64,000 nucleotides of DNA from an uncultured Candidatus Micrarchaeota archaeon (GTDB lineage: Archaea > Micrarchaeota > Micrarchaeia > Micrarchaeales > Micrarchaeaceae), in assembly GCA_963762355.1 (NCBI GenBank), contig CAVXKJ010000001.1, forward strand, positions 24,860 to 88,859, given 5' to 3'. Within the stretch, counting starts at the first letter, position 1. Each line of letters opens with the position of its first letter. Shown piece after piece: positions 39 to 64,000 of this stretch. A program made the position numbers and the translations under genes. Under the pieces are notes generated by a model. The model was given only the letters and a program-made list of their open reading frames with translations, did not search any database and was not told the DNA's origin.

Positions 39-1376
39 TTGAAGAATCTTAGAACTGTGGATCCTGAGATATATAAGGGAATAAAGAATGAGCTTAAGCG
101 CCAGCGCACATGCCTTGAGATGATACCCTCCGAGAACTTTGCAAGCCTGAACGTTATCAATACATTGGGTACAGTGCTAAACAACAAATATTCGGAAGGA
201 TATCCTAAGAGAAGATATTATGCGGGCAACGAATTCATAGATGACATAGAGAGCATTGCAATAGAAAGAGCAAAGAGTCTTTTCAAGGTGCCTTATGCCA
301 ATGTGCAGCCATATTCTGGCTCTCCCGCAAACCTTGCTGTTTACGCTGCTCTCTGCAATCCTGGAGACACGATAATGGGACTCAACCTTAGCGATGGGGG
401 GCACCTTACCCACGGCTGGAAGACAAGCATAACAGGAAGGTTCTTTAATAGCGTTCCCTACCATTCAAAGGAGGATGGCTACATAGACATAGAGGAGGCA
501 AAAAGGCTTGCAATTGAGAACAGGCCAAAACTGATTTGGATAGGAGCTACAGCATATCCAAGGGCATTGCCATTTGAGGAATTTGCGCAGATTGCGGATG
601 AATGCGGGGCATATCTTGCCGCTGATATATCCCATGTTGCAGGATTGGTAATTGGAGGTGTCCATAAGAGCCCTGTTGATTATGCCCACATTGTTACGAC
701 AACAACACACAAGACTTTAAGGGGACCGCGGGGTGCAATAATACTTGTTACAGATAAGGGACTTAAAAAGGATGCAGAGCTTGGTGAAAAGATAGACAAA
801 ACGATAATTCCTGGCATGCAGGGAGGACCTCATGACAATGTGACAGCTGCAATGGCAGTGGCATTCCTTGAGGCCTCAAAACCAGAGTTTGCAGAATATG
901 CATCCCAAATAGTGGATAATTGCAAGGTACTTGCAAATGAGCTAATGAAAAATGGGATTAAGCTTGTGACAAACGGGACTGATAACCATTTGGCTGTTAT
1001 CGATCTTACCCCATTTGGAAATGGTAAGGGGGTATTCGTGCAAGATGCCCTTGAGCTTGGTGGAATAGTTGTTAACAAGAACACAATACCAAAGGAACCG
1101 TCCAGCCCGTTCTATCCTAGCGGAATAAGGCTTGGCGCACCTGCAATTACGTCAAGAGGAATGAAAGAGGAACAGATGATAACCATCGCGGGGCTTATTG
1201 CAAGTATAATAAAAGAGGTAAAGGATTACAGCATACCAGAAGACAAGGAAAGGCGAGCGCAATACATGAAGAAGTTCCACAAGGAAATCAAAAAGAACAA
1301 AACCATAAAGGAATCGAGAGAGAAGGTAGTGAGCATGTGCAACGAATTCCCGCTTTATGCTGATTTAAAATTATAG
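39..1376 (+). CDS. glyA: serine hydroxymethyltransferase
   Basis: 445-aa ORF with SHMT motifs (NKYSEGYPKRRYYAGNE; TTTTHKTLRGPRG around the PLP lysine). Confidence 0.95.
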   Translation: MKNLRTVDPEIYKGIKNELKRQRTCLEMIPSENFASLNVINTLGTVLNNKYSEGYPKRRYYAGNEFIDDIESIAIERAKSLFKVPYANVQPYSGSPANLAVYAALCNPGDTIMGLNLSDGGHLTHGWKTSITGRFFNSVPYHSKEDGYIDIEEAKRLAIENRPKLIWIGATAYPRALPFEEFAQIADECGAYLAADISHVAGLVIGGVHKSPVDYAHIVTTTTHKTLRGPRGAIILVTDKGLKKDAELGEKIDKTIIPGMQGGPHDNVTAAMAVAFLEASKPEFAEYASQIVDNCKVLANELMKNGIKLVTNGTDNHLAVIDLTPFGNGKGVFVQDALELGGIVVNKNTIPKEPSSPFYPSGIRLGAPAITSRGMKEEQMITIAGLIASIIKEVKDYSIPEDKERRAQYMKKFHKEIKKNKTIKESREKVVSMCNEFPLYADLKL

Positions 1377-1390
1377 GATATTATGTTAAC

Positions 1391-1621
1391 ATGATAAGTG
1401 ATTTTATGAGCAATAATGGAAGCAAATTCCAGAGGAGTATAAAGGGAATGCGTGATAGAAGAGATCTTGCAGCTATGCTTCATGGCGAAGAGGAGCTGAC
1501 TGTAGATCTTGCCAGAATTATTAGAGGTGTAAGAGATAGGTCAGTTGCTAATCAAGTTTTGAGAAGGAGTGAGTTAGACGCCAAGAATACAAAGACCAGG
1601 GCTGCTGGTGCTGGTGTATAA
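1391..1621 (+). CDS. hypothetical small protein (76 aa)
   Basis: ORF fills the glyA-pelota gap on the same strand. No recognisable motif. Confidence 0.3.
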   Translation: MISDFMSNNGSKFQRSIKGMRDRRDLAAMLHGEEELTVDLARIIRGVRDRSVANQVLRRSELDAKNTKTRAAGAGV

Positions 1622-1672
1622 ATTTCTATATTGTATCAAAACTACTAAATCCTTATTTTTCAATATATTCAT

Positions 1673-2701
1673 ATGAAGATAGTGAAATTCTACGAAAGCA
1701 CGGGCACACTGAAACTTAAGGTAGATACATTGGAAGACCTATGGACAGCGCAGCGCATAATATTTGCAAATGATATTGTAAAATCAGAGAGCGAACGTAA
1801 ATTCAAATCCAGCGAGAGCGACAAGGGAGAATTAAAAAAGGTTGTAATAACATTAAGGGTTGAAAAGACAGAGCTTGACAAGGATGCGATGCGGCTTAGA
1901 ATACTTGGAAAGATAGTTGATGGCAAGCCTCTTGAGTACATAAGGATAAACAGCTACCACACCCTCAATATCGCGCCTGGTGATGTATTTGACATAATAA
2001 AGGGCGAATGGCAGGATTACATAATAAGCGTTGTTAAGAATGCGGTATCAGATTCAAAGAGGCCGAGATTGGGGCTGATTGTGATAGATGAGGAAAAGGC
2101 GCTCCCTGCGTATATGCTCGGCTATGGAGTCGATTTCGGCAATGAGGTATATAGCAAATTAAGCAAGAGAATGAGCCAGAAGGACTTCCAGGAGCAGCAG
2201 AACAAGTATTATGATAATATATTTGAGTTGATTAAAAGCCTTGTAGTGGACACTGTTGTGGTTGCAGGGCCTGGCTTCACTAAGGATGACATAAAAGCCT
2301 ATGGCGAATCTTCCGGAATCATAAAAAAGATTGATAAGAGGATAATCTTTGAAAGTGTAAGCAATTCGGAGCGCTCAGGAGTTTATGAATTGATAAAAAG
2401 CGACAAGTTTGCAAGGATATTGGAGAAGGAGCGCATAAGGACAGAATTCAAGCTCATAGAGGAATTCCTCACGAACCTAGGCACAGGAAAGTCAAAATAT
2501 GGAATAGAAAATGTAACAATAGCCCTGGAAAACAGTGAGGCAAGTCTTATACTGGTCAATGACAGCATTCTGGGAGACCCAGCTGTACAGGCACTTCTGA
2601 GCGATGCGGAAAAAGATAGAATAGAGATAGAGGTCATAAACTCAACAGACGAGGTCGGTGAGCAGCTTCACGGATTCAAGGACATTGCAGTTATAGCTTA
2701 A
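1673..2701 (+). CDS. pelA: mRNA surveillance protein Pelota (Dom34)
   Basis: 342 aa with typical archaeal Pelota length and N-terminus (LKLKVDTLEDLW...) and an eRF1-like C-terminal region. Confidence 0.88.
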   Translation: MKIVKFYESTGTLKLKVDTLEDLWTAQRIIFANDIVKSESERKFKSSESDKGELKKVVITLRVEKTELDKDAMRLRILGKIVDGKPLEYIRINSYHTLNIAPGDVFDIIKGEWQDYIISVVKNAVSDSKRPRLGLIVIDEEKALPAYMLGYGVDFGNEVYSKLSKRMSQKDFQEQQNKYYDNIFELIKSLVVDTVVVAGPGFTKDDIKAYGESSGIIKKIDKRIIFESVSNSERSGVYELIKSDKFARILEKERIRTEFKLIEEFLTNLGTGKSKYGIENVTIALENSEASLILVNDSILGDPAVQALLSDAEKDRIEIEVINSTDEVGEQLHGFKDIAVIA

Positions 2702-2794
2702 GTCCATTTATATAGCTTAAGTCCATTTAAAAAGAGCGTATAGATAGAGATTTAATCCTTTGATTGCTTATCAACTATAGAATTGGTGCAATTT

Positions 2795-3205
2795 ATGTCA
2801 CTTGGCTCTGAATTCAAGGACTTCATTATGAAAGGAAATGCAATAGACCTAGCGATAGGTGTTGTTGTAGGGGTTGCATTCAATGCTGTTGTCACTGCAT
2901 TGGTGTCTGACATAATAACACCATTAATAGGCATACCGGGCCATGTAAATTTCTCGGCGTATACTTACACAGTAAACGGAAGCGTATTCATGGTTGGCGC
3001 ATTCGTAAATGCATTGATAAGCTTCATAACCATAGCAATAGTCGTTTTCTTCTTTGTTGTCAAGCCGATATCAAAGATGAAAGAGGCAAGTGCAGCAAAG
3101 AACAAGAAGGAGGAAAAGGCAACGACAAAGAAGTGCCAGGAATGCCTTTCTGAAATACCTATAGCAGCAAGGAGGTGCGCATTCTGCACATCTGAAGTTA
3201 AATGA
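2795..3205 (+). CDS. mscL: large-conductance mechanosensitive channel MscL with C-terminal zinc ribbon
   Basis: N-terminal signature FKDFIMKGNAIDLAIGVVVGVAF and two TM segments. The tail carries CQEC...CAFC. The ATG at 2795 is preferred over the TTG at 2783. Confidence 0.85.
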   Translation: MSLGSEFKDFIMKGNAIDLAIGVVVGVAFNAVVTALVSDIITPLIGIPGHVNFSAYTYTVNGSVFMVGAFVNALISFITIAIVVFFFVVKPISKMKEASAAKNKKEEKATTKKCQECLSEIPIAARRCAFCTSEVK

Positions 3206-3448
3206 ATCAGCTCAGGAAGGTCGATACAAAAGATTTAAATATATATCATTCGTTATAAGAATACACACTTGGAATGTTTGGTGTAATGATGCAAATGTTA
3301 CAGCATTGGTTTAGTATGCCAGTCGCGGTTATAGGTAGCACAGGCATTTGCGCACATCTCATTGTAGATACACCAAATAATAATAAGGACCAGGTTGCTG
3401 CCGCATAAATTAACTTTTTTTAAAGTTTTGGTGGTTTATGTGGCACAA

Positions 3449-3841
3449 ATGGTATATGGTAGAGTGTATAAAGAAATCAGGATTAGCAGGAGAGAGCAAC
3501 TCATGCTTCTTGAGATCGAAGAGGATTTTATAGACACAGCCTCCAGCTTTGTCGATTACATGAAAGATGAGTATGGATTCTCTAAAAGCTCGGTATGGTA
3601 TTGCCTGAACAGGCTAAAGGGATTCGGGCTTGTAGAATTCGCAAACAAGGACGAGATAGGCAAGCCGCTCAGCCTGACAAGGCATGGACTGGACGAACTT
3701 GCAAGGCTAGAGAGTATAAGGAATGAGGTAATAGATCGCTTCAGCGGCGAATTTGTCCAAAAGATGCAGAGCAAGAGTGCAAGCGCCAATTATGCAAACA
3801 GGTACAACGGCATGGCAAATGGGGTTTACGCTTACAGATGA
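3449..3841 (+). CDS. winged-helix transcriptional regulator (MarR/ArsR-like)
   Basis: The segment GFSKSSVWYCLNRLKGFGLVEF...GKPLSLTRHGLDEL looks like HTH plus wing. The start is uncertain (ORF opens at 3395, first ATG at 3449). Confidence 0.5.
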   Translation: MVYGRVYKEIRISRREQLMLLEIEEDFIDTASSFVDYMKDEYGFSKSSVWYCLNRLKGFGLVEFANKDEIGKPLSLTRHGLDELARLESIRNEVIDRFSGEFVQKMQSKSASANYANRYNGMANGVYAYR

Positions 3842-4004
3842 CAGCTTGGCGACCTAGGTGATGGGATGGAACAGAGGACTGGCATGTCAGCAATACCGGC
3901 TGGCTGTCTTTCTATTTTATTTGGATGCAAGCAGAGAATAAGGGTTAATTAGGCGACTTTGTGGGACAACGGATAGGTTTAAAAATATCAATAGTGATAA
4001 TATA

Positions 4005-4262
4005 GTGATGAATATGAAGACCAGTTTAGTACAATTGCAGGAAGAGGTTACTGTGATTAGGCGCGAGCTCAAAGGAATAAAAAAGAAATTAGACCGCCCA
4101 ATTTTAGGACCTATAATAATAGAGGGTGTGAGTGAAAGTGAGCTGACGTTAAAGGATAAGAAACATCTTGAAGAGGCCAGAGCGGATCTAAAAGCTGGAA
4201 GGATGAGTAAATTCGTAACACTTGACGAAGTGGAAAGGACGCTTAAAAAGAGAAAAACTTAA
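4005..4262 (+). CDS. small coiled-coil protein, possible antitoxin-like
   Basis: 85 aa with a charged helical N-terminus and a C-terminal LEEARADLKAGR..FVTLDEV segment. It is convergent with, and overlaps by 4 nt, the RelE-like gene. Confidence 0.4.
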   Translation: MMNMKTSLVQLQEEVTVIRRELKGIKKKLDRPILGPIIIEGVSESELTLKDKKHLEEARADLKAGRMSKFVTLDEVERTLKKRKT

Positions 4263-4465
4263 CCTTTTGAATAGCTTATTCTACCTCTTATATCTATTTC
4301 TGTTATGTATAATATATCACCTTCTACTGCAAAAATAATTCTATAGTTACCTCTTCTTATCCGATATACATGATGTTCTAACTTTTTAAAATCTGCATGT
4401 ATCATTGGAAACTGTTCCAGCGTTTTCGCAGTTTCGAGTATCTTCTCAACTATAAAGCTGGGCAT
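4259..4465 (-). CDS. RelE/ParE-family toxin (N-terminus probably extends to about 4516 without a canonical start)
   Basis: YRIRRGNYRIIFAVEGDILYITEIDIRGR is a RelE/ParE core. In-frame upstream codons read ITKVIIQKRAAKKLDK-MPSF, which is a typical RelE N-terminus. There is no ATG/GTG/TTG between the stop at 4541-4543 and 4465. Confidence 0.72.
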   Translation of the reverse strand: MPSFIVEKILETAKTLEQFPMIHADFKKLEHHVYRIRRGNYRIIFAVEGDILYITEIDIRGRISYSKG

Positions 4466-4569
4466 TTTGTCTAGCTTTTTGGCCGCGCGTTTTTGAATAA
4501 TAACTTTCGTAATTACACCACATATATTTTGATTTAGGATTTATATTACTACTGATTCATGCGATTTGT

Positions 4570-4585
4570 GGGCTTCATCCCATAA
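4570..4585. repeat. IS left terminal inverted repeat
   Basis: GGGCTTCATCCCATAA, the exact reverse complement of 5766-5781. Confidence 0.88.
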
Positions 4586-4654
4586 TTCAATAACGGCGTG
4601 AATAGCGGAATTTCTAGAGGACAATTTTTATCCTTTTTCTGACCTACTCAAAAC

Positions 4655-5608
4655 ATGGGAAAACCCAAAAAGAGGGTGAACCCGAAGGTGGTAAGTAGAG
4701 TTGATAGGAACCTTGAAGAATTGACTGTAAAAGAGGCAAAGAAGTTCGTTGATAGACTTCCCCCACCATGGGAAGAATACAGCAGAGGCCGACCAGTAAT
4801 ACACAACAGTAGAACCGTATTTGTGTTATGTTTATTGATGGTCTCTCTGAATTTCACCTATGACAAGATGGCATCAGAAATGAGGAAGGAATACCTTGAG
4901 AAATTACTCAAGGTCAACAACCTTCCAAGTCGCAGTGTCTTGAATAGAGGTATGCTGCGCCTTAATCAGAAATACGTCAGGAGATTTAATAAATGTCTTG
5001 TCAGGAAGATTCTCAAAAGAGGAAGGTTGACGATTGTTGTGGATTCAACAGGCATACGTCTGAAAACCAGTAGCTCATGGTATGATATTCGGATAAAGAG
5101 GCAAAACAAAAGAAAGGACAATGCAAAAGTACATATTGCGCTCAGTATTAACAGAAATGTTATTACCGAATACAAAATAACGAACTGGAAAAGGAATGAT
5201 TCACCGCAACTTGAGTTTCTCTTGAGAAACATCGACGAACTCATTGCAGTTCTTGCAGATTCAGGTTATCCATCAATAAAGAATTTTGATATCGTCGCAA
5301 AGAAGGCAGGCAGACCATTCATCAAGTTCAAGAAGAATGCGGGCAAAAATGGTTCTAAAGTATGGGACGAGATGGTTGATTTTTCAAGATCGTATAAGGA
5401 AATTTACGATACAATTTACCACCTCCGTTCGATAATAGAAAGTATAATGTCTGCTCTGAAAAGACGATATGGAAATTATGTTAGGGCGATAAAGACAAAG
5501 GCAAGAAATATGTCCATTGCTTTGAGAATACTTGCCTTCAACATCAAACAAACACTCTACGATAAGACCGCAACACGACTCGGTCTTCCATATTGGGTAC
5601 ATTGCTGA
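4655..5608 (+). CDS. DDE transposase (IS4/IS5-superfamily type)
   Basis: 317 aa with candidate DDE triad contexts VVDSTGIRL, VLADSGYPS and IIESIMSALKRRYG. It lies inside the TIR-bounded element. Confidence 0.85.
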   Translation: MGKPKKRVNPKVVSRVDRNLEELTVKEAKKFVDRLPPPWEEYSRGRPVIHNSRTVFVLCLLMVSLNFTYDKMASEMRKEYLEKLLKVNNLPSRSVLNRGMLRLNQKYVRRFNKCLVRKILKRGRLTIVVDSTGIRLKTSSSWYDIRIKRQNKRKDNAKVHIALSINRNVITEYKITNWKRNDSPQLEFLLRNIDELIAVLADSGYPSIKNFDIVAKKAGRPFIKFKKNAGKNGSKVWDEMVDFSRSYKEIYDTIYHLRSIIESIMSALKRRYGNYVRAIKTKARNMSIALRILAFNIKQTLYDKTATRLGLPYWVHC

Positions 5609-5765
5609 CCAGTGAAAAACGACCAATGTAGGTTCAACAGTTAGTGGATACTTTATTCTACTTTCTAATCCCACATAGATTTATTGAATTTTTGATTATA
5701 ATCTGTGAAAATAGTCTACCAACTCTTTACAGAGGATGGAATAATTGTTTTCAGATGTCAATTAT

Positions 5766-5781
5766 TTATGGGATGAAGCCC
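5766..5781. repeat. IS right terminal inverted repeat
   Basis: TTATGGGATGAAGCCC, the reverse complement of 4570-4585. Confidence 0.88.
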
Positions 5782-5847
5782 GATTTGTGAGCGTTATAGG
5801 GACTATGTATTAATAGAACAGCTGAATAAGCTTCCAATAGTTTAAGA

Positions 5848-6204
5848 TTATTTCTCAGTTCCAAGCAATGCAAAGTTTATAGATTTGACATGCTTGTCAC
5901 GCTTTAATGCGCTGAACAATTCACGGATTTTATTCGCATCTGCATTTACATTTATTATGTCAAGACACATCGCATGCTGGTGCTGGTGTATTGTCGTCTT
6001 TATGGAGTTCTCAAACTTATGTAGTACATTTGAAACCTGATCTCTTTGGTGTTCCCTATAAGTTATTATCAACACAAGCTCGTGTCTTCCCTTGAGCGAA
6101 TCTATTATCCTGAATTCGTTCATCAGCGAATCGATTGTTGCCCTTATCATTTTTGACCTGCTTTTAAAACCCAGATTACGCTGTATGCTGTTGAGCTCCT
6201 TCAA
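5848..6204 (-). CDS. NikR-like metal-responsive regulator (RHH plus ACT-like metal-binding domain)
   Basis: His-rich C-domain (HQHQHAMC). The RHH strand ISISLDEETLKELN continues in frame upstream of the listed TTG start, to about 6240. The gene is divergent from the metal ABC operon. Confidence 0.68.
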   Translation of the reverse strand: MKELNSIQRNLGFKSRSKMIRATIDSLMNEFRIIDSLKGRHELVLIITYREHQRDQVSNVLHKFENSIKTTIHQHQHAMCLDIINVNADANKIRELFSALKRDKHVKSINFALLGTEK

Positions 6205-6357
6205 TGTTTCCTCATCGAGGGATATGCTTATTATCTCCAGTAAACCACTTTTTATTAAGATTTAATGCTTTCCACTTAATAGTTAATAATTAAAACACGA
6301 AGACTTATTAACTTTTGTTTTAGCATTGTATATTGAGATTTAAATTTTAGTGATGCA

Positions 6358-7335
6358 ATGGCAAAAACAAATAGATATGCACTTGTTGGGATTACAGCAG
6401 TTGTAGTAATCATAATAGCGATAGCGGGTTTTGTTTTGTATAGCAGCAATAACCATGCTTCAGGTCTGACTTCCAAACAGTTATCTAACTCGAGTTTGTC
6501 TAATTCAAGTTCCATGAATGTTATACAGATTGTTGCTGCCGAGAACTTTTGGGGCAGCCTGATGCAGCAGCTTGGTGGGACGCATGTTAATGTAACAAGC
6601 ATTGTCACCGATCCTAATGCTGATCCCCACGAATATGAGAGCAATGCGGCTGATGCGCGAGATATAGCAAATGCAAAGATCGTGATTGTCAATGGGGTTG
6701 GATATGATGACTGGGCACTGAAGCTCATATCCGCAAACAACAATCCGAACCAGACAGTACTTAATGTGGCAGATCTGCTTAACGTGCCAAATGGATCAAA
6801 CCCTCACCTCTGGTATAATCCTACTTATGTAAATACGACTGTAAAACAGATGTATTTGGACCTTGTAAGGACAGATCCTGCTGATGCTGCTTATTACAAG
6901 CAAAGGTACAATAACGTAACCGCCTCGCTTGCACAGGTTGACAGCCGCATGACCGAAATAAGAGACCAGTTTGGCGGCACAAAAGTGGCTTCTACAGAAA
7001 GCATATTTGTTTACCTTGCTAATGCTACGGGACTTGATTTGGTTTCACCCCCAGCATTTATGGATGCTGTTGCAGAGGGGGTAGACCCGCCAGCTCAGAG
7101 CGTTTCAGAATTTGAGAACCAGCTTGAGAGCAAAAATGTAAGTGTGCTGGTCTACAATGAGCAGACTGTAACCTCGCTGACGCAGCAGATCAAGCAGATA
7201 GCAGTTGATAACAACGTCACAATAGTCGGTGTGACTGAGACAATCCAGCCTCCAGATGTTACATTCCAGGTCTGGATGAATGGGGAATTGCTGCAGCTGC
7301 AGAATGCACTCAATGCAAATGCGCTGGGCCAGTGA
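6358..7335 (+). CDS. metal (Zn/Mn/Fe) ABC transporter substrate-binding protein, ZnuA/TroA family
   Basis: N-terminal TM anchor. Motifs IVAAENFWGSL, DPNADPHEYE and NGVGYDDW are typical of cluster-9 SBPs. Confidence 0.85.
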   Translation: MAKTNRYALVGITAVVVIIIAIAGFVLYSSNNHASGLTSKQLSNSSLSNSSSMNVIQIVAAENFWGSLMQQLGGTHVNVTSIVTDPNADPHEYESNAADARDIANAKIVIVNGVGYDDWALKLISANNNPNQTVLNVADLLNVPNGSNPHLWYNPTYVNTTVKQMYLDLVRTDPADAAYYKQRYNNVTASLAQVDSRMTEIRDQFGGTKVASTESIFVYLANATGLDLVSPPAFMDAVAEGVDPPAQSVSEFENQLESKNVSVLVYNEQTVTSLTQQIKQIAVDNNVTIVGVTETIQPPDVTFQVWMNGELLQLQNALNANALGQ

Positions 7336-8129
7336 TGAAAATGAGCATCAAAGAGGAGATAGTGTCTGCCAAGAACCTTACCATAGGCTATGGTGAGAAG
7401 CCAGTCTGGAAGGACGCACACTTCAGTGTTAATCGTGGAGAGTTTGTGGCTGTGATTGGCCCTAATGGCGCCGGAAAGACAACAATGTTCCGCTTGCTCC
7501 TCGGCCTACAGCAGCCGATGAGCGGAACGATAAAGGTATTCAATGCCAAACCTATGCGCGGCAATCCTAAGATCGGATACATACCACAGCGCCACACTAT
7601 CGACAATGACACCAATATCGAATGTGCAGAACTGGTTCGCCTTGCATATTCAGGAAATAAGTGGGGATTTAACTTGTCACCAAGTGCAGAGAAAAAATTA
7701 GCATCAGATACATTAGCAGCTGTTGGCGCTACAGAATTGGCTAAAAAATCGCTCGGTTCACTTTCTGGAGGTGAACTACAGAGGATATTTCTTGCAGAGG
7801 CATTGGTAAGCAACCCGGAGATGCTATTGCTAGATGAACCCTTATCCAATCTTGATATAAGGAGAATCAAGGACCTTGTAGAGCTGATGAATTCCGTGGT
7901 AAAATCACGCAACGTCACAGCATTCCTGGTAGCTCACGATATCAATCCACTGATACAGTATCTCGATAAGGTAATATACATAGCAAATGGCAAGGTTGCG
8001 ACTGGAACCCCTGAGGAGGTACTTACATCAAAGCGCCTTAGCTCTCTGTATGGAACCAGTGTAGAGGTCCTGCGCGATTCAAAGAACAACATAGTAGTTG
8101 TAGGCGCAGAGGATTATCACGGTGACTGA
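7332..8129 (+). CDS. metal ABC transporter ATP-binding protein
   Basis: Walker A GPNGAGKTT, signature LSGGELQR and Walker B LLLDEP. It overlaps the upstream gene by 4 nt. Confidence 0.92.
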   Translation: MMKMSIKEEIVSAKNLTIGYGEKPVWKDAHFSVNRGEFVAVIGPNGAGKTTMFRLLLGLQQPMSGTIKVFNAKPMRGNPKIGYIPQRHTIDNDTNIECAELVRLAYSGNKWGFNLSPSAEKKLASDTLAAVGATELAKKSLGSLSGGELQRIFLAEALVSNPEMLLLDEPLSNLDIRRIKDLVELMNSVVKSRNVTAFLVAHDINPLIQYLDKVIYIANGKVATGTPEEVLTSKRLSSLYGTSVEVLRDSKNNIVVVGAEDYHGD

Positions 8130-8970
8130 TACCATGTATATACCATTTAGCATCAATTTGATTTCAGATTTTAAGGAGATTTTTCAGTACCAGTTCATGC
8201 AGCATGCATTTGAGGCTGGCACTATTATAGCAATAATAGCTGGAATAATTGGCTATTTCGTTGTACTGCGACGCTCATCATTCGCCGCACATGCACTTTC
8301 AGAGATAGGTTTTGCAGGTGCTGCAGGCGCGGTGCTTGTCGGAATAAATCCTATCTTCGGTCTTTTATCTTTCTCAACAGTAAGCGGCGCCGGGATTGCG
8401 GTACTTGGCAAACGTGCCTCGCACCGTGATATTGAGATAGGCTCCGTGCTTGCATTCGCACTAGGCGTTGGGGTATTGTTCATAAGCCTTTATACAGGTT
8501 ATGCCACAGAGGCATACTCCATACTTTTTGGAGAGATACTTGGCATAAGCACAAGCGGCGTAATCATAACATTTGTACTTAGTCTTGCAATCCTTGTAGC
8601 GGCAGCATTTGTGTATAGGCCGCTTTTGTTTTCCTCGCTCGATGAGGAGGTCGCCGAGGCAAAGGGAATACCAACACTTCTTATCGGGATTATCTTTATG
8701 TTATTACTTGCTGCGGCAGTCTCAATAGCAGTCCAGGTTGTTGGGGTGCTTCTTATCTTCGCACTGATGGTAACGCCAGCCGCTACCGCAATTAGGTTGA
8801 CAAAGAAACCTACATATGCCATAGTCATATCTATACTTATTGCCTTATTCGCAACATGGCTGGGGCTCTTCATTTCCTTTTACGCACCATATCCAGTAAG
8901 CTTCTTCGTTACAGCAATAGTGTTTGGCTCATATCTGTTTGTCAGATTGGCACGCCCGAATAACTCTTAG
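8122..8970 (+). CDS. metal ABC transporter permease (ZnuB/TroD-like)
   Basis: 282 aa and polytopic, with ABC-3 family character. It is translationally coupled to the ATPase. Confidence 0.9.
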   Translation: MTDTMYIPFSINLISDFKEIFQYQFMQHAFEAGTIIAIIAGIIGYFVVLRRSSFAAHALSEIGFAGAAGAVLVGINPIFGLLSFSTVSGAGIAVLGKRASHRDIEIGSVLAFALGVGVLFISLYTGYATEAYSILFGEILGISTSGVIITFVLSLAILVAAAFVYRPLLFSSLDEEVAEAKGIPTLLIGIIFMLLLAAAVSIAVQVVGVLLIFALMVTPAATAIRLTKKPTYAIVISILIALFATWLGLFISFYAPYPVSFFVTAIVFGSYLFVRLARPNNS

Positions 8971-8973
8971 ATA

Positions 8974-9675
8974 TTATATTGCAAATTCTATCCTGAAAAA
9001 TGGCTCTGCATACTTGTACTTCCATTTCTTGCCCATTCTTGCAGCCATCTCCTTCACAAATCCAGGATTTGATCCTATACCTTGGCTCTTGTGCTCGGAT
9101 AAGGCCTTTACCTTCAGGTCTATGAATTTGCTTATATCCACAGCAAAGTTTGGGTTTCCAAAGTTTGCCAGATACATCTCCTTTACCCTGTGTGGCTCAT
9201 GCCCTTCCTCCCTAAGTTCAGGAAATGTCATCATATTCCTTGCTGCGGGAAAGACCGCATCTATAGTTGCAAGGCCTGCAGCCCTATGATCGGTATGGTT
9301 AACGAACCTATCCGAGAATATGTAACTTGGATCGTGTGTTATCACTATATCCGGCTTCAACTTCCTAACGTATCGCACTATTTCCTTCCGTAGGTTTATG
9401 TCTGCAACAAGTTCGCCGTCCTTATGATCGAGAAAGAAAACATCTTTTATGCCCAGAAGCTTTGCCGATGCCTTTTGCTCCTTTACCCTTATCTCTGCCA
9501 GTTTCCTGTGCGTCATTTTGGGATCCCTGCTTCCCTTTGACCCATCAGTGCATATCAGATAATAGCATTCTGCACCATCTTTTGCAAACTTTGCAAATGT
9601 TCCAGCTGCGCCAAAATCAATATCGTCAGGATGTGCGCCTACGCCCAATACAACAAGCTTTTCTTTTTGTTTCAT
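8974..9675 (-). CDS. PIG-L/LmbE-family deacetylase
   Basis: VLGVGAHPDDIDFGAAGT plus an HTDHR motif. Confidence 0.8.
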   Translation of the reverse strand: MKQKEKLVVLGVGAHPDDIDFGAAGTFAKFAKDGAECYYLICTDGSKGSRDPKMTHRKLAEIRVKEQKASAKLLGIKDVFFLDHKDGELVADINLRKEIVRYVRKLKPDIVITHDPSYIFSDRFVNHTDHRAAGLATIDAVFPAARNMMTFPELREEGHEPHRVKEMYLANFGNPNFAVDISKFIDLKVKALSEHKSQGIGSNPGFVKEMAARMGKKWKYKYAEPFFRIEFAI

Positions 9676-56687: not shown

Positions 56688-56732
56688 CGCCTTGGCCGGG
56701 ATTCGAACCCGGGTTACAACCGTGACAGGTCG
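56688..56732 (-). pseudogene. tRNA 3'-portion remnant (T-arm plus acceptor 3' strand)
   Basis: The minus strand reads CGACCTGTCACGGTTGTAA-CCGGG-TTCGAAT-CCCGG-CCAAGGC-G. No matching 5' half was found. Further T-loop-like GGTTCGA / TCGAACC fragments lie at 56619-56646, 56679-56687 and 56791-56803. Confidence 0.6.
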
Positions 56733-57890: not shown

Positions 57891-58187
57891 ATGAGGAAGA
57901 GCTAGACGATTAAGGAAAAGATGCTCGGCTCGGTCTGCGGGCGAGTCCGAGGAAGATGCCGTATCAGTCCTAAAGTCCTAATCCACAACCAAGCGAAATG
58001 AATTTCGTTCCGCTGACATTAGTAAATCCTACGATTTACTTCCGCACTCCCTCGCACTGCGGCTTCGGTCAGTCGGCTTCGCCCAAGGCTCAGACCGAGA
58101 CCTCAGCGTTGCGTTCTCACACCTATTACCGCACGGGCAGGTGGCTCGTTTCAAAAATTCCTCCACTTAACAGTGAAGAGGAATTTT

Positions 58188-58346
58188 ATGAAAACTCGCA
58201 AAAAATACACCTGCCCGAACTGCGGATGGAGTGATGGATTCAGCCACAGGCCTTTGAGCGTCAGCGAAATAAGGCAGTGCCACAAGTGGCACAGGAAACC
58301 TAAAGGTTTCCTAGAACGTTTGAGCGCGTTTCTGGCGCGCTTATAG
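58188..58346 (+). CDS. candidate 52-aa zinc-ribbon-like protein
   Basis: Hand translation gives MKTRKKYTCPNCGWSDGFSHRPLSVSEIRQCHKWHRKPKGFLERLSAFLARL. It is preceded by GAGGAA. It lies in a hairpin-rich GC-rich stretch, so coding status is uncertain. Confidence 0.3.
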   Translation: MKTRKKYTCPNCGWSDGFSHRPLSVSEIRQCHKWHRKPKGFLERLSAFLARL

Positions 58347-58377: not shown

Positions 58378-58417
58378 AGATAGCAACTATAATAAGCTTA
58401 CTTATTGTTATTTTATC

Positions 58418-59296
58418 ATGCGAAAGGATTTTGAAAGCAATTTTGTAATCGGCAAGGTACACATAGTGACACAATATACCCTAAATTCGAAGGGGAAAAT
58501 AGATTTTAAAGAGCAGGCAGAGAACTTAATATCGAAAAGCAGTCCACAAGTCGAAAAAACTAAGAAAGGAGGAGAAAAGGCGACGTGGGTGTTTGGCGAT
58601 GTTGGAACGATGCAAATAGAAGGGGAAACTATATTGTATGGGAAATTAGGCAAAATTAAGGGAGACAGAATAGGAACTTTTTATGATTTGCAGAATAGAA
58701 TTTTCAAGAGAGAACACATGACTATGCCTTTGACACAATCCTATTCGAATTTTTTAATTCATCCTAGGACGCAAACCATAATATTTGAAGAGAAAAGACC
58801 GATGCTCAAGATTAGGAAGTTTATTGAAATGTTTGAAGAGATTGCTTCTGTTTACTTTTCGCAAGGACAACATGCTTTTCTGAAAATAGACCTAATTAAA
58901 GAGGAAGGAAAAATATTTGGACTGTTGAAAGATAAACTCATAGTTAATCTGGGATTTTCTATAAGGCCTTCAAATCCTGATGACAGAGAGATTTTCAAAC
59001 GTTTAGATGAAATGCTTAAAAAGTCAGGTATAGAAAAGGGAAAAATGCAGTTTGAAAATAAATCGGATGGGCTAAAATTGGATGAGGGAGGAATTGCGAG
59101 AGAGGCCATAGCTCTTAGTGATGCTGGATATGGCGACTATACTGCCAAAGTAAAAGATGGGGAGAAAACACAGACAATACGCTCTAAGGATAATGTAGTA
59201 AGGGAGACAGTTCCTTCAGGGCAGAATAGGGAAAATTTAGTAAAAACTTTATTTCATAGATTTAAAAACTATCTAAAAGGAAGTGAGAAAAAATGA
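58418..59296 (+). CDS. uncharacterised soluble protein (292 aa), first gene of a 3-gene module
   Basis: Long ORF with coding-like composition and no motif I can name. Its stop overlaps the next start (ATGA at 59293-59296). Confidence 0.6.
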   Translation: MRKDFESNFVIGKVHIVTQYTLNSKGKIDFKEQAENLISKSSPQVEKTKKGGEKATWVFGDVGTMQIEGETILYGKLGKIKGDRIGTFYDLQNRIFKREHMTMPLTQSYSNFLIHPRTQTIIFEEKRPMLKIRKFIEMFEEIASVYFSQGQHAFLKIDLIKEEGKIFGLLKDKLIVNLGFSIRPSNPDDREIFKRLDEMLKKSGIEKGKMQFENKSDGLKLDEGGIAREAIALSDAGYGDYTAKVKDGEKTQTIRSKDNVVRETVPSGQNRENLVKTLFHRFKNYLKGSEKK

Positions 59297-59808
59297 AATA
59301 CGAAGAAACTACTTTTTGGTTTTTGCTTAATAAATATGGAAAACTTAGAGTAATCAAGTCGGTAGATTTCATATTAGCATTAGTATTAGCTGTGATATTT
59401 ACTGGATTGGCTATATATACAAATTTAGAAGTTCCGCTACTTAAAACTACTTCACCAATTTTTGCTGCGATTGGTTCAGGAATGATCGCAATTGTGATTG
59501 CGGCATTGGCTATTTTAGTTTCTATGTCGGATAATGACTTTGTGTATTTATTAAAGGAAAGTAAGATGTATGATGAAATACTGTTTATTTTTTGGTATGT
59601 TTCTATTCTTGCAGGAATTAGCATATTTATTGATGTAATAAGTACGATTTTCATTACAGTTGCATCGAGCGCCTTGATAAGTATGGGACTGGTATTTATT
59701 ACAACTTTCATAACTTCTTATGCTGTTTTTGCAGTGATATTAGCTATTGGAACAGTTATGAGATACGGTTTATATCGTGGGGAATTCATAAGACAAAAAG
59801 GGAAATAA
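59293..59808 (+). CDS. uncharacterised 4-TM membrane protein
   Basis: 171 aa with four long hydrophobic helices. It is translationally coupled to the upstream gene. Confidence 0.6.
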   Translation: MKYEETTFWFLLNKYGKLRVIKSVDFILALVLAVIFTGLAIYTNLEVPLLKTTSPIFAAIGSGMIAIVIAALAILVSMSDNDFVYLLKESKMYDEILFIFWYVSILAGISIFIDVISTIFITVASSALISMGLVFITTFITSYAVFAVILAIGTVMRYGLYRGEFIRQKGK

Positions 59809-59835
59809 TAAAAGCTCTGTTGTACCAACTAATTC

Positions 59836-60090
59836 ATGGCGGAACTACATAGGAATACTAAGATATGGCTTCTAATTATCGGAATATGTGTCGTAGCCAT
59901 CATATTCTTTAGGTTCTTACTAGGAATAATATTTTTAGGAGCAATAGTGGTAGGGTTTGGATACTTATTCTACAAGGGAATAAGAAGTAAGATAGAGAAC
60001 TTCGGAGAAACCCAAAACAGCAAGTCAGAGGATGCACGAGACGAAAGCGCACAGATGCAGGCGATAAGGGATAGGAGCAGACATGATTAG
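59836..60090 (+). CDS. small 2-TM membrane protein with a charged tail
   Basis: 84 aa with helices IWLLIIGICVVAIIFF and IIFLGAIVVGFGYLF, followed by an acidic/basic tail. Confidence 0.5.
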   Translation: MAELHRNTKIWLLIIGICVVAIIFFRFLLGIIFLGAIVVGFGYLFYKGIRSKIENFGETQNSKSEDARDESAQMQAIRDRSRHD

Positions 60091-60383: not shown

Positions 60384-61661
60384 ATGGCCAATAAAAAGTA
60401 TACCGATGACTTTTTCTATTCAAGGTATTTGGTCGTCGGGTTCGGGAATTTGGAGCTATTTGTGGATAGTAATAGGCCTAGGAATTTTGTCTTTAATCGC
60501 AATAGGAATAACAAAATTCTGGATTATAGGCGTATTCTGGTTAGTATATACAATATACCTGACGATAAGATTAGTTCACGTCCAACCACAGCCGAACGCA
60601 AAGGAGCCGTAAGCAGCCAGCTCCGTAAGGCTGTTAACAAACAAATTTATTTTGCGAAGCAAGACTCCGCTAGAGAAAATAATAGAAAGAAAAGCTCTGG
60701 TGAACGTAAGCCTGTTGACCTGAAAAACTACATAGAAAACAAGGCCAACAGGAACGTGATGATAGTAGGCACGTCAGGGCAAGGAAAATCCTTGCTAACA
60801 AGATACTTGCTAGAGCTTTTCGACAACAGAAAAGTCATTTTCTCGTTCAAGCCCAATGATGAATATCTAAAAATGGGATACAAAATAGTCGAGGCTTCGA
60901 AAGCGTTGCCAAACGCCTTCCGTGACATCGAAGCCTTCGTAAATGCGTTCGCAATTACCTTTCCGATGACGGCTATTGGGATTACAGCCCAATACATACC
61001 AGTCTATCTACGAGAGATCGGAAAGGACTCAAAAGACTGGAAAGACTTTCAGCCAAAGGCTAGACAAAGCGATTTCAAGCTCAAAGAACCAAACACAACA
61101 GAGTGCGCTGCTCTTCGTAAGAGAGCACGCAAAATCGCTTTACAACGATGCTACGCATGAAGTTCCTGAATTAGACGAGAGCGTAGTTTTTGACTTTTCA
61201 AGCCTCAACGAGGACGCAAAAACCTTCTATGCGGAACTTATACTAAGACAGGTCTGGAAGGACATGACAGAAACTGGACATAAGCGCAACAATACGCTTA
61301 TTTGCGTAGACGAGGCCCACAGACTTTAAGAACATTCGAGAAATACGAGTCCATATACGGCGAAATGAGCCGTGAGATAAGAGCCTTCGGACTCTTATGG
61401 ACTTCTACGCAGAACTTTACAGATATACCAGATAAAGTGCGAAACCAGTTCGCAACCCAGTTTCTTTTCAATACAAATCATCAAGATGATTTAGTGGCTC
61501 TTCGAGCCATAGACGAAAAGCTGTCTTGGGCAGCTTCCAGCCTGCCAAAGCACTGTTTCACAGATGCGCGCTACGAGTGGATACACAACGTAGTGCCGGA
61601 ATACACGCTTTTCGTACAAGACGGAGGACAAGGAAAGGAACTATTACGAGGCGCAGACTGA
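60384..61661 (+). pseudogene. plasmid/conjugation-type P-loop ATPase (HerA/VirB4/VirD4-like), interrupted by 2-3 frameshifts
   Basis: Walker A MIVGTSGQGKS, Walker B TLICVDEAHRL and a TSTQNFTDIP..VRNQ C-motif are spread over frames 0, +1 and 0. The overlapping frame at 60406-60612 encodes two clean TM helices, possibly the true N-terminus. Confidence 0.72.
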
Positions 61662-61674
61662 CGCTGAACCTCTT

Positions 61675-62263
61675 ATGTTCGCCTTGCCTCAAAACAGGCC
61701 TACGCCTACGATACACGCAGCCATGCTCGCAATACAATACAACCAAGGCTCAAACATGAGCGTGCTCGCAGACTGGCTGAAGAAGAAGGGCTTTATTACA
61801 AGCAATAACACCATCTACGGCTACGGCACAAGGCAGGGAGTCTTCGATACTGCCGTATCGCTTGGCTTCATAGAGAAGCGCAAGGGAGGCTATAAGCTTA
61901 CTGATAAAGGCAAGAAGTGGGTAGATGCTGATACTATACTAGAAGGTGAGCTAAACGCAGGTAGCGAGCTACATAAGCAGATATCTAGCCAAGACCATAC
62001 AAAAGCTTCACGAAACCAATACCTTGGTCGTGGCTCCGAAGGAGCGTCAAGCTTTCGACCTAGTGGCTTATCCTGTGGATAAGGGCAAGAAGCACCTATG
62101 GGATGATAAGAAGAGGATGGGTTATGAGATACAGACTACGGCTAGGAAGGATGCAGTTATGGCTAACGCCGAAAAGAGAGATAGAGGCGTGCCTATAACT
62201 TGGGTAGCCTGCGATGAGAATGTTCTAAAGAACATAAAGCAGGAAACAGGAGATAAGGACTAA
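61675..62263 (+). pseudogene. wHTH plus restriction-endonuclease-fold-like protein, one frameshift
   Basis: The N-terminal part is KKGFITSNNTIYGYG...GFIEKRKGGYKLTDKG (wHTH-like). The C-terminal part FDLVAYPV...GYEIQTTARK continues in the +1 frame from about 61955-62030. Confidence 0.55.
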
Positions 62264-62558
62264 CTGATAATACTAGAAGGTGAGCTGAACGCAGGAGCGA
62301 ACTGATAAGAGATTAGAAGAATACAAAAGCTTACGAAAATATGGGGGCTAAGGAGGTAAGCTGAAATAGATCTGGGATAAAGGCAAGAAGCACCTGTGGG
62401 ATGATAAAAACAAGATGGGGTATGAGATACAAACTAATGCTAGGAAGGATGCGGTTATGGCTAACGCAAAGAGAGATAAAGGCGTGCCAATAACTTGGGT
62501 AGCCTGTGATGAGAATGTTCTGAAGAACATAAAGCAAGAAACAGGAGATAAGGACTAC
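62264..62558 (+). repeat. degenerate tandem duplicate of 61928-62263
   Basis: Begins with the same CTGATA(C/A)TA...CTAGAAGGTGAGCT(A/G)AACGCAGG and ends with the same AACATAAAGCA(G/A)GAAACAGGAGATAAGGAC. The middle part is decayed or deleted. Confidence 0.8.
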
Positions 62559-62577
62559 TATATGATGGTGAGCTTAA

Positions 62578-63009
62578 ATGAATGAAGAGATAGAGGATAT
62601 TGTAATTCAAATAACTAAGGTCGTAAGTCCTGAGATAAAACATAATGATACGATTAACCAGTTAGAGATGATATTTAGGAAGAATGGATTTTATACAACA
62701 AAAGAATACCCGATATTTAAGATGAAAGATAAACCTGAAAGAACAGGGAGAATAGACTTAGTGGCTAGAAAAGGGAAATTTAGAGTAGTTGTTGAATACG
62801 ACCATCATAGACTGATAAAGTGGAAGAGCTTTCAGAAGATGGTTCAGATAAAGCCTGATGTGGCTATTGGAATAACTGGGAGTGGGCTGATGGAACCTAA
62901 TTTTGAAAGAGCTGTGAAGTATAGGGAAAAAGCTAAATCTTTGCTTTACGTGGTCTCTTTAAGGCAGAGGAGATATAAGCTGGTTGATGCAACCAAGGTG
63001 AGTTTATAG
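62578..63009 (+). CDS. hypothetical protein, possible PD-(D/E)xK nuclease fold
   Basis: 143 aa. The GRIDLVARKGKFRVVVEYD pattern is the basis for the call (weak). Confidence 0.45.
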   Translation: MNEEIEDIVIQITKVVSPEIKHNDTINQLEMIFRKNGFYTTKEYPIFKMKDKPERTGRIDLVARKGKFRVVVEYDHHRLIKWKSFQKMVQIKPDVAIGITGSGLMEPNFERAVKYREKAKSLLYVVSLRQRRYKLVDATKVSL

Positions 63010-63166: not shown

Positions 63167-64000
63167 TTGCAAAATTTACTAAATGATTTGAAAGAGCTTC
63201 TTTCAAAGACGAGAGACTAGTTTCCGGAGGAGAATTATTAAAAAATAAAGTTATTGAACTCGCTCTGAAATTAGATGAGGATTTGATAAAATTATTATTA
63301 TCTAAGAGTGAATTTAAGCAGCACTTTTTTGTTGAAGTGGACAAGGTTTTGATTTTTGATAAAGATAAGTTCATAAGGTTTGTTAATAATAAAGAATTTT
63401 TGCCTGATTCTTATACCAGTTTTAAAAATAAGATAGGGTTAGCTGAAGATGAAAATTTCATTAGTCAGAATAAAGAGGTTGTACTTTTATTTCCGTTTAA
63501 GGATTGTATATTGGAAGGCGATCAGAGCAGGGAGGAAGAAAAACATGATGAAATTTTCTGGAATGTAACACTCGCACCTGATGAGATTGATAGGCTTTTA
63601 GAGCCAAAAGTTTTTACGAGTTTTAAGAAAGTGGATGTGTCTGGTGAGCACGATGCCACAGAAATTAAGCAAAATGATAACCTGATAGTCAAAGGAAATA
63701 ATCTGCTTGCTCTTGCTTCGCTCAAGAAAAAGTTTTCTGGTAAGATAAAACTTATTTACATAGACCCGCCATATAATACAGGAAATGATAGTTTTAGGTA
63801 TAATGATAGATTTAACCATTCCACATGGTTAACTTTTATGAAGAATAGATTAGAATTAGCTAAAGATTTACTTAAAGATACAGGTATTATTTTCGTGCAT
63901 CTCGATTATAATGAGTCTCATTACTGCAAGGTTTTGCTAGATGAAATATTTGGTAGAGAGAATTTTATTAACGAAATTGTCTGGAAGAGAAAATCAGGGA
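63167..64000 (+). CDS. mod: Type III (beta-class) N6-adenine DNA methyltransferase Mod, 5' part, one frameshift near 63205; runs off the window
   Basis: Hand translation in the frame of 63187-64000 gives ...NNLLALASLKKKFSGKIKLIYIDPPYNTGNDSFRYNDRFNHSTWLTFMKNRLELAKDLL. The N-terminal LQNLLNDLKELLSK lies in the adjacent frame. The gene is absent from the ORF track because it has no stop within the window. Confidence 0.85.

Follow-up and report, generated by a model that had tools for sequence, protein, structure and literature searches.

The 64,000-nucleotide stretch of contig CAVXKJ010000001.1 analysed here (hereafter the window), from an uncultured Candidatus Micrarchaeota archaeon, carries two overlapping genes on its forward strand that encode a RexA-like cytoplasmic component belonging to the Pfam family DUF4747 (gene 1, 58418-59296, 292 amino acids) and a four-helix membrane partner, the presumed effector (gene 2, 59293-59808, 171 amino acids). 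That these are a protein of the DUF4747 family and RexA fold and its co-evolving four-transmembrane (4-TM) partner is close to certain, and by analogy with characterised phage systems the two genes probably form an abortive-infection or exclusion module of the RexAB/Sbash/CarolAnn type, function included. The computational evidence comprises the family and RexA-like fold of the gene 1 protein, the 4-TM topology of the gene 2 protein, the conserved side-by-side placement of the two genes with their coupling and joint divergence, and their mobile or defence neighbourhood. A preliminary description, made from the sequence without database searches, had proposed an uncharacterised three-gene module in which a soluble sensor and a membrane effector act in abortive infection or exclusion. 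Its sensor-effector idea is strengthened by the DUF4747/RexA fold, the paired 4-TM protein and the precedents among defence systems, whereas the third gene and the label "uncharacterised" have to be given up.

Family membership and predicted fold of the gene 1 protein

The gene 1 protein matches the Pfam profile of DUF4747 (PF15931) with 35.6 bits (E = 8.7e-9; positions 98-254 of 257), above the curated gathering cut-off of 27 bits, and also matches phrog_10040 (E = 7.4e-9); the earlier statement that this open reading frame (ORF) holds no recognisable motif is therefore wrong. An exhaustive HMMER search recovered homologues in 242 representative clusters at E <= 1e-3, nearly all of them 270-300 amino acids long, and DUF4747, with no other family, was matched by 24 of the 70 aligned relatives. 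No match to the 292-amino-acid protein was found by tblastn in 50,697 phage records or in a plasmid collection, and NCBIfam contains no match for the proteins of genes 1-3 (gene 3 being the ORF that follows the pair), nor for lambda RexA.

The AlphaFold model of the gene 1 protein, built on a 70-sequence alignment, has a predicted local distance difference test score (pLDDT) of 93.6 and a predicted template modelling score (pTM) of 0.89. Its top and sole significant match in the PDB is lambda RexA (8twq_B; probability 0.99, E = 6.8e-4), with E. coli RdgC (2owl_B) at rank 7 (probability 0.77). From a beta-rich N-terminal domain the model passes through an inserted domain built from four strands and 3-4 helices to a long C-terminal helix, and the published topology of RexA has the same order of elements (PMC11077077). 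The two-domain fold of RexA and RdgC, in which a split beta-rich domain accommodates a four-stranded, helix-backed dimerisation domain, is seen in the model as well; the structural kinship of RexA and RdgC was reported together with the RexA crystal structure (PMC11077077). Among viral models in BFVD, uncharacterised proteins from uncultured tailed phages match best (E from 1e-13 to 1e-8), and a phage "recombination-associated protein" appears at rank 8. Searched with a DUF4747 family profile, the PDB sequences gave only noise, and 8TWQ was not recovered.

The four-helix membrane partner

Hydropathy and the AlphaFold model (pLDDT 85.8) place four helices in the gene 2 protein, at residues 24-43, 46-77, 92-123 and 127-170, in agreement with the four transmembrane (TM) helices called in the preliminary description. 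Each terminus has five lysine or arginine residues and the two short loops have 0-1, a distribution which implies an N-in/C-in topology and would put the N- and C-termini, along with the conserved central loop (SMSDNDF..LLKE), on the cytoplasmic side. The protein has no match in Pfam, PHROG, PADLOC or NCBIfam. Twelve homologues were found in an indexed search, and the family is marked by an N-terminal motif M.YEDT.F...YG..R...S.DF, the motif MIAI.IA.LAI.VS.SD..F in TM2, ILF.FWY where TM3 begins and a C-terminal motif GT.MRYGLYR.EF. PDB sequences likewise yielded only noise when searched with the 4-TM family profile; RexB has no solved structure.

Linkage and co-divergence of the two genes

Related loci (given by L numbers) were searched from both the DUF4747 side and the membrane side, and six-frame translations of the fetched loci were scanned with hidden Markov models (HMMs) of both families. 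In 11 of 12 distinct DUF4747 loci, the window included, the DUF4747 gene is followed by an adjoining, co-oriented 4-TM gene (window, L007, L008, L011-13, L014/15, L020, L021, L022/23, L024, L025 and L026). The DUF4747 proteins of these paired loci are 20-56% identical to the gene 1 protein in the alignment used for co-divergence, and pairwise identities of one protein correlate with those of the other (r = 0.86), a value reached by 1 of 5000 permutations in a Mantel test. A three-sequence locus search found a single locus among genomes (L008), a single one among metagenomes (L021) and none among viral contigs. The preliminary description had let its proposal depend on the linkage of the soluble and membrane genes and on the setting of their homologues; the linkage holds in the 11 loci just listed, and the setting is mobile or defence-related, with no housekeeping operon.

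In the window, the junction around 59293 reads ...AAAAAATGAAAT..., where the ATG of gene 2 (59293-59295) overlaps the TGA of gene 1 (59294-59296). Gene 2 is predicted to be translationally coupled to gene 1 through this ATGA overlap, and the 4-nucleotide overlap is kept in five of the eight full pairs.

Proposed function and the evidence that bears on it

Lambda RexA, a soluble protein, and RexB, a 4-TM protein, interact and exclude T4 rII (PMC6426596, PMC6426606, PMC7542560, PMC11077077). Sbash gp30/31 and CarolAnn gp44/43, which have been likened to RexAB, were shown experimentally to defend lysogens against heterotypic phages (PMC6426596, PMC6426606, PMC7542560). The authors of these studies propose that the soluble protein switches on an ion-channel activity of the membrane protein, whereupon ATP drops and the infection is aborted (PMC6426596, PMC6426606, PMC7542560, PMC11077077). 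SEC-MALS (size-exclusion chromatography with multi-angle light scattering) and electrophoretic mobility shift assays (EMSA) have been applied to RexA, Sbash gp30 and CarolAnn gp44 (PMC11077077).

By analogy with these systems we infer dimerisation, DNA binding, physical interaction, channel activity and a defence phenotype for the archaeal pair. Carried as AT-rich foreign cargo in an archaeal genomic island, the pair would act through the gene 1 protein, probably a DNA-binding dimer, which would detect a cue from an infecting virus or other invader and then engage the cytoplasmic face of its membrane partner. The partner would in turn dissipate the membrane potential, ATP would fall, and replication of the invader would be aborted.

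A number of results weigh against a Rex-type assignment. The Pfam HMM of RexA (PF15969) does not match the gene 1 protein at E <= 0.1, whereas lambda RexA itself scores 326.8 bits; an hhalign comparison of the 70-sequence gene 1 profile with lambda RexA gives a probability of 0.1%; and the global TM-score of the gene 1 model to RexA is only 0.32 (root-mean-square deviation 14.5 Å), a low value that we tentatively attribute to domain orientation, RexA having hinge and swivel loops. For the membrane component, the RexB HMM (PF15968) matches neither the gene 2 protein nor six relatives at E <= 10, whereas lambda RexB scores 305 bits in the same search, and hhalign of a 16-sequence 4-TM profile with a 13-sequence RexB profile is weak (28%, E = 6e-4, over 34 columns that cover TM2 and the following loop). 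At this level of comparison, homology between the membrane partner and RexB cannot be demonstrated. Nor does its model have a significant fold match, all matches in BFVD having E > 0.1. Comparisons by hhalign of the window families with CarolAnn gp44/gp43 and with three-phage alignments give probabilities of 0.4% or less, and no PADLOC-DB v2 model matches the gene 1 or the gene 2 protein. The two genes are also found apart: L009/10 and L016/17 have a 4-TM gene but no DUF4747 gene, and in the DUF4747 lineage L001-6 two single-helix proteins (116 and 98 amino acids) stand in place of the 4-TM partner, which suggests that effectors are swapped within the DUF4747 family.

At rank 2 among the BFVD matches of the gene 2 model is a weak match to a 165-amino-acid uncharacterised protein of Sbash (E = 0.63, probability 0.77, TM-score 0.46), which has the same length as gp31 and may correspond to it; the Sbash sequence was located by tblastn with CarolAnn gp44. 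The uncultured siphovirus ctylc9 supplies both a weak match to the gene 2 model and one of the top matches to the gene 1 model.

Extent of the module

Gene 3 (59836-60090, forward strand), an 84-amino-acid ORF with a hydrophobic hairpin, is the same-strand neighbour of the pair. It begins after a spacing of 27 nucleotides from gene 2 and is followed by a 294-nucleotide gap before the next ORF, and the lengths of the three ORFs, the ATGA overlap and the 27-nucleotide gap are exactly as the preliminary description had them. Its product contains one 44-residue hydrophobic stretch (residues 6-49) interrupted by R26, for which a two-helix hairpin is plausible, compatible with the earlier call of two TM helices.

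Gene 3 is probably co-transcribed with the pair. Related loci contain no counterpart (tblastn found nothing better than E about 8), and its GC content is 0.40, against 0.36 for gene 1 and 0.31 for gene 2; because of these two differences we take the conserved unit to be two genes, not the three proposed earlier, and treat gene 3 as a lineage-specific neighbour and not as a conserved part of the module. Family libraries yield only sub-threshold compositional matches for its product. Assignment as a holin or lysis protein was rejected, its sole support being a sub-threshold PHROG spanin match, as was assignment as PDC-M67B, where a 14-bit PADLOC match falls within the hydrophobic segment.

A three-gene system, with the 84-amino-acid hairpin protein as an integral part such as a second membrane subunit or a regulator, appears unlikely. 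It would suit the shared strand, the close spacing, the gap after gene 3 and the lack of an obvious terminator between genes 2 and 3 (the promoter and terminator scan used bacterial models, which are uninformative for an archaeon), and some relatives do have an extra small membrane gene downstream, for example a 165-amino-acid 4-TM protein in L012. However, no homologue of the 84-amino-acid protein exists across the related loci, where gene 2 is directly followed by an insertion sequence (IS) in L007 and L008 and by a gene on the opposite strand in L025 and L026, and the GC content of 0.40 sets gene 3 apart from genes 1 and 2 (0.31-0.36).

Genomic context of the pair and of its relatives

The window encodes the large subunit of PolD and is on that account archaeal; it was matched by one sequencing run, a DNA metagenome. 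At 0.35, the GC content of the module is below the 0.43 measured across the window's first 54.6 kb. Three copies of the 12-mer CGCCTTGGCCGG (54657, 56151 and 56688), against 0 expected by chance, frame a gene with an archaeal ATPase_2/DUF234 match in Pfam that lies in the island stretch. An 18-nucleotide fragment resembling the 3' end of a tRNA or tmRNA (56696-56713, minus strand) abuts the third copy, and an Rfam search of 54-64 kb found nothing else. Successive integration events probably left the CGCCTTGGCCGG copies behind as scars, marking where the island starts.

Downstream of the module, a P-loop ATPase (60384-61661) can be read only across three frames, in pieces of 258, 117 and 119 amino acids, and is either a pseudogene or affected by assembly indels; its weak TraG/HerA/VirB4-type matches bear out the conjugation- or plasmid-type ATPase described earlier. 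The Type III methyltransferase placed about 3 kb away in the same description was also found, a Mod gene beginning at 63283, 3.2 kb downstream of the pair. Between them (62024-62585) the end of a gene is present in two diverged copies, arranged head to tail, each with MGYEIQT.ARKDAVMANA..RD.GVPITWVACDENVLKNIKQETGDKD and neither with a match in Pfam.

Upstream of gene 1, a candidate archaeal TATA box (TATAATAA, 58388-58395, forward strand), read from the sequence, has its centre about 27 nucleotides 5' of the gene 1 ATG, a position that in an archaeon would point to a transcript that is leaderless or nearly so. The GC-rich, hairpin-dense spacer just 5' of gene 1 also holds a 57-amino-acid ORF (58173-58346) with a C-x2-C...C-H-x2-H pattern (YTCPNCGW...QCHKWH) and no family match, possibly a gene or a small regulator.

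The relatives have as neighbours Type ISP/IIG restriction-modification genes, HsdS, BglI restriction-modification, Dcm with Vsr, an MvaI/BcnI endonuclease with methyltransferase and integrase, a Swt1-like HEPN protein and IS4 transposases. The closest relative in the genome collection is L008 (OY969902.1), an 853-kb "uncultured archaeon" chromosome reconstructed as a metagenome-assembled genome (MAG). In this locus (519-8555) the gene 1 relative is split into an N-terminal part of 115 codons (519-866) and a C-terminal part of 184 codons (8001-8555), with about 7.1 kb between them that encode a BglI-type endonuclease and methyltransferase, an IS4-like transposase, a HATPase_c_3 protein, a Dcm methyltransferase and Vsr. 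An intact 4-TM gene (8552-9076) comes next, followed by a second IS4-like transposase. The split looks like a composite insertion, laden with restriction-modification genes, into a defence gene.

Further variations were seen elsewhere. The DUF4747 protein of L001 (8001-9499) and of L002-L006 is 48-50% identical to the gene 1 protein. The 4-TM protein of L009/L010 carries a fused 50-residue tail (L009:4137-4805), which in L007 (1052-3055) forms a separate 61-amino-acid ORF past the inserted IS, and both L007 and L009 run on into a Type IIG/ISP restriction-modification gene. L009, which has no DUF4747 gene and adjoins a D5-type primase and many small ORFs, is probably a virus or plasmid. In L022/23 (L022:1340-3563) the pair ends a four-gene run that begins with genes for 45 and then 234 amino acids, downstream of a Type I HsdS gene, and the 234-amino-acid gene overlaps the start of the DUF4747 gene by 4 nucleotides. 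The upstream neighbour in L026 (317-2874) has a near-threshold Swt1-like HEPN domain. The upstream neighbours in L022/23 and L026 may be accessory components in some lineages.

Alternative functions of the pair

Since the model of the Rex mechanism is unsettled, a role in maintaining the mobile element itself is a live rival, in which the RexA-like protein would modulate the switch between the integrated and replicative states and the membrane partner would tune it. RexA stabilises the lytic state without need of RexB, its binding to DNA is non-specific, and it biases the CI/Cro switch of lambda toward lysis (PMC11077077); the island in the window bears probable integration scars in its three 12-mers, and integrases adjoin relatives. 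Nevertheless, the module in the window has no repressor/Cro-like pair next to it, many relatives stand beside restriction-modification genes and not in immunity regions, and a modulator of a switch needs no strict pairing with a membrane protein, all of which leaves such a role with a low probability.

Tight translational coupling, co-divergence and a mobile context would likewise be expected of an addiction module, in which the soluble protein would restrain a depolarising toxin, the membrane protein, and the pair would stabilise the island with no sensing of viruses. We consider this quite improbable: the 4-TM gene stands alone in L009/10 and L016/17 with no obvious partner, and in L008 the soluble gene is split beside an intact membrane gene, arrangements that would be lethal in L009/10 and L016/17 if the protein were a bare toxin, and the characterised relatives act on infecting phages. 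A membrane-tethered, RdgC-like factor of DNA metabolism (recombination-associated DNA binding) unrelated to conflict with viruses, which the RdgC match at rank 7 in the PDB and the "recombination-associated protein" at rank 8 in BFVD might recommend, is very improbable, given that RexA outranks RdgC, that RdgC has no paired membrane gene, and that the genes are patchy, AT-rich and located in islands beside restriction-modification genes and not in conserved DNA-repair contexts.

Implications for archaeal defence

With the abortive-infection or exclusion module as the preferred reading, three "hypothetical" genes become a named and testable module, with its unit corrected from three genes to two. 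The main text of a recent census of archaeal defence systems (PMC12988326) makes no mention of Rex or CarolAnn/DUF4747 cassettes; the archaeal occurrence may be regarded as mildly new, because it is unmentioned in that main text and missed by PADLOC v2. An archaeal lineage of the cassette, with close relatives in other archaeal MAGs, would add an abortive-infection system to a domain where few are known, and the two genes are a compact test case for the question of whether a membrane effector of the Rex kind can function in archaeal membranes.

A bolder and rather doubtful proposal is that DUF4747 and this 4-TM family constitute a strictly co-evolving Rex-type branch, with an effector independent of RexB, which crossed the boundary between bacteria and archaea. 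If so, this branch would operate in a probably symbiotic archaeon of the DPANN type that has a small genome and an ether-lipid membrane, would back up the neighbouring restriction-modification as a second, suicidal line of defence, and the 84-amino-acid hairpin protein might serve as a further membrane subunit or as a brake.

Comparison with known Rex-type systems

Like lambda RexA/RexB, the archaeal pair consists of a soluble protein of about 280-290 amino acids followed, at tight spacing, by a small 4-TM protein on a mobile element. RexA is the best PDB match (8TWQ) of the gene 1 model, and RexB shares its four helices with the gene 2 family and has a similar motif, G(T/S)MIAI(L/V)IAAL, at the equivalent position in TM2 (GTMIAILIAAL in RexB). 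In contrast, the window proteins have no HMM-level similarity to RexA or RexB, RexB does not have the M.YEDT.F and GT.MRYGLYR.EF motifs of the gene 2 family, and the window pair is not beside a cI-like repressor and has an archaeal host.

Sbash gp30/31, CarolAnn gp44/43 and Butters gp30/gp31 likewise combine, in two genes, a DUF4747-like soluble protein with a 4-TM protein (165-178 amino acids). However, the soluble proteins of Sbash and CarolAnn are about 370 amino acids long and fall below DUF4747 recognition in hmmscan, their reported similarity to DUF4747 consisting of weak HHpred matches only (PMC6426596, PMC6426606, PMC7542560). Judged by profile matches, the gene 1 protein is a closer DUF4747 member than these characterised proteins.

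The architecture that the preliminary description called uncharacterised has already been catalogued as the "DUF4747/CarolAnn prophage system", whose operons were counted as immune operons and often lie downstream of restriction-modification systems (PMC13373217). The bacterial and phage DUF4747 plus 4-TM cassettes described there differ from the window pair in that the window copy and its closest relatives reside in archaeal genomes or elements and in that no regulators of the CapK/CapS type were found upstream of the window pair, whereas the Pfam family, the partner architecture and the adjoining restriction-modification operons are the same. The pair is an archaeal member of this known kind of system and not a new class.

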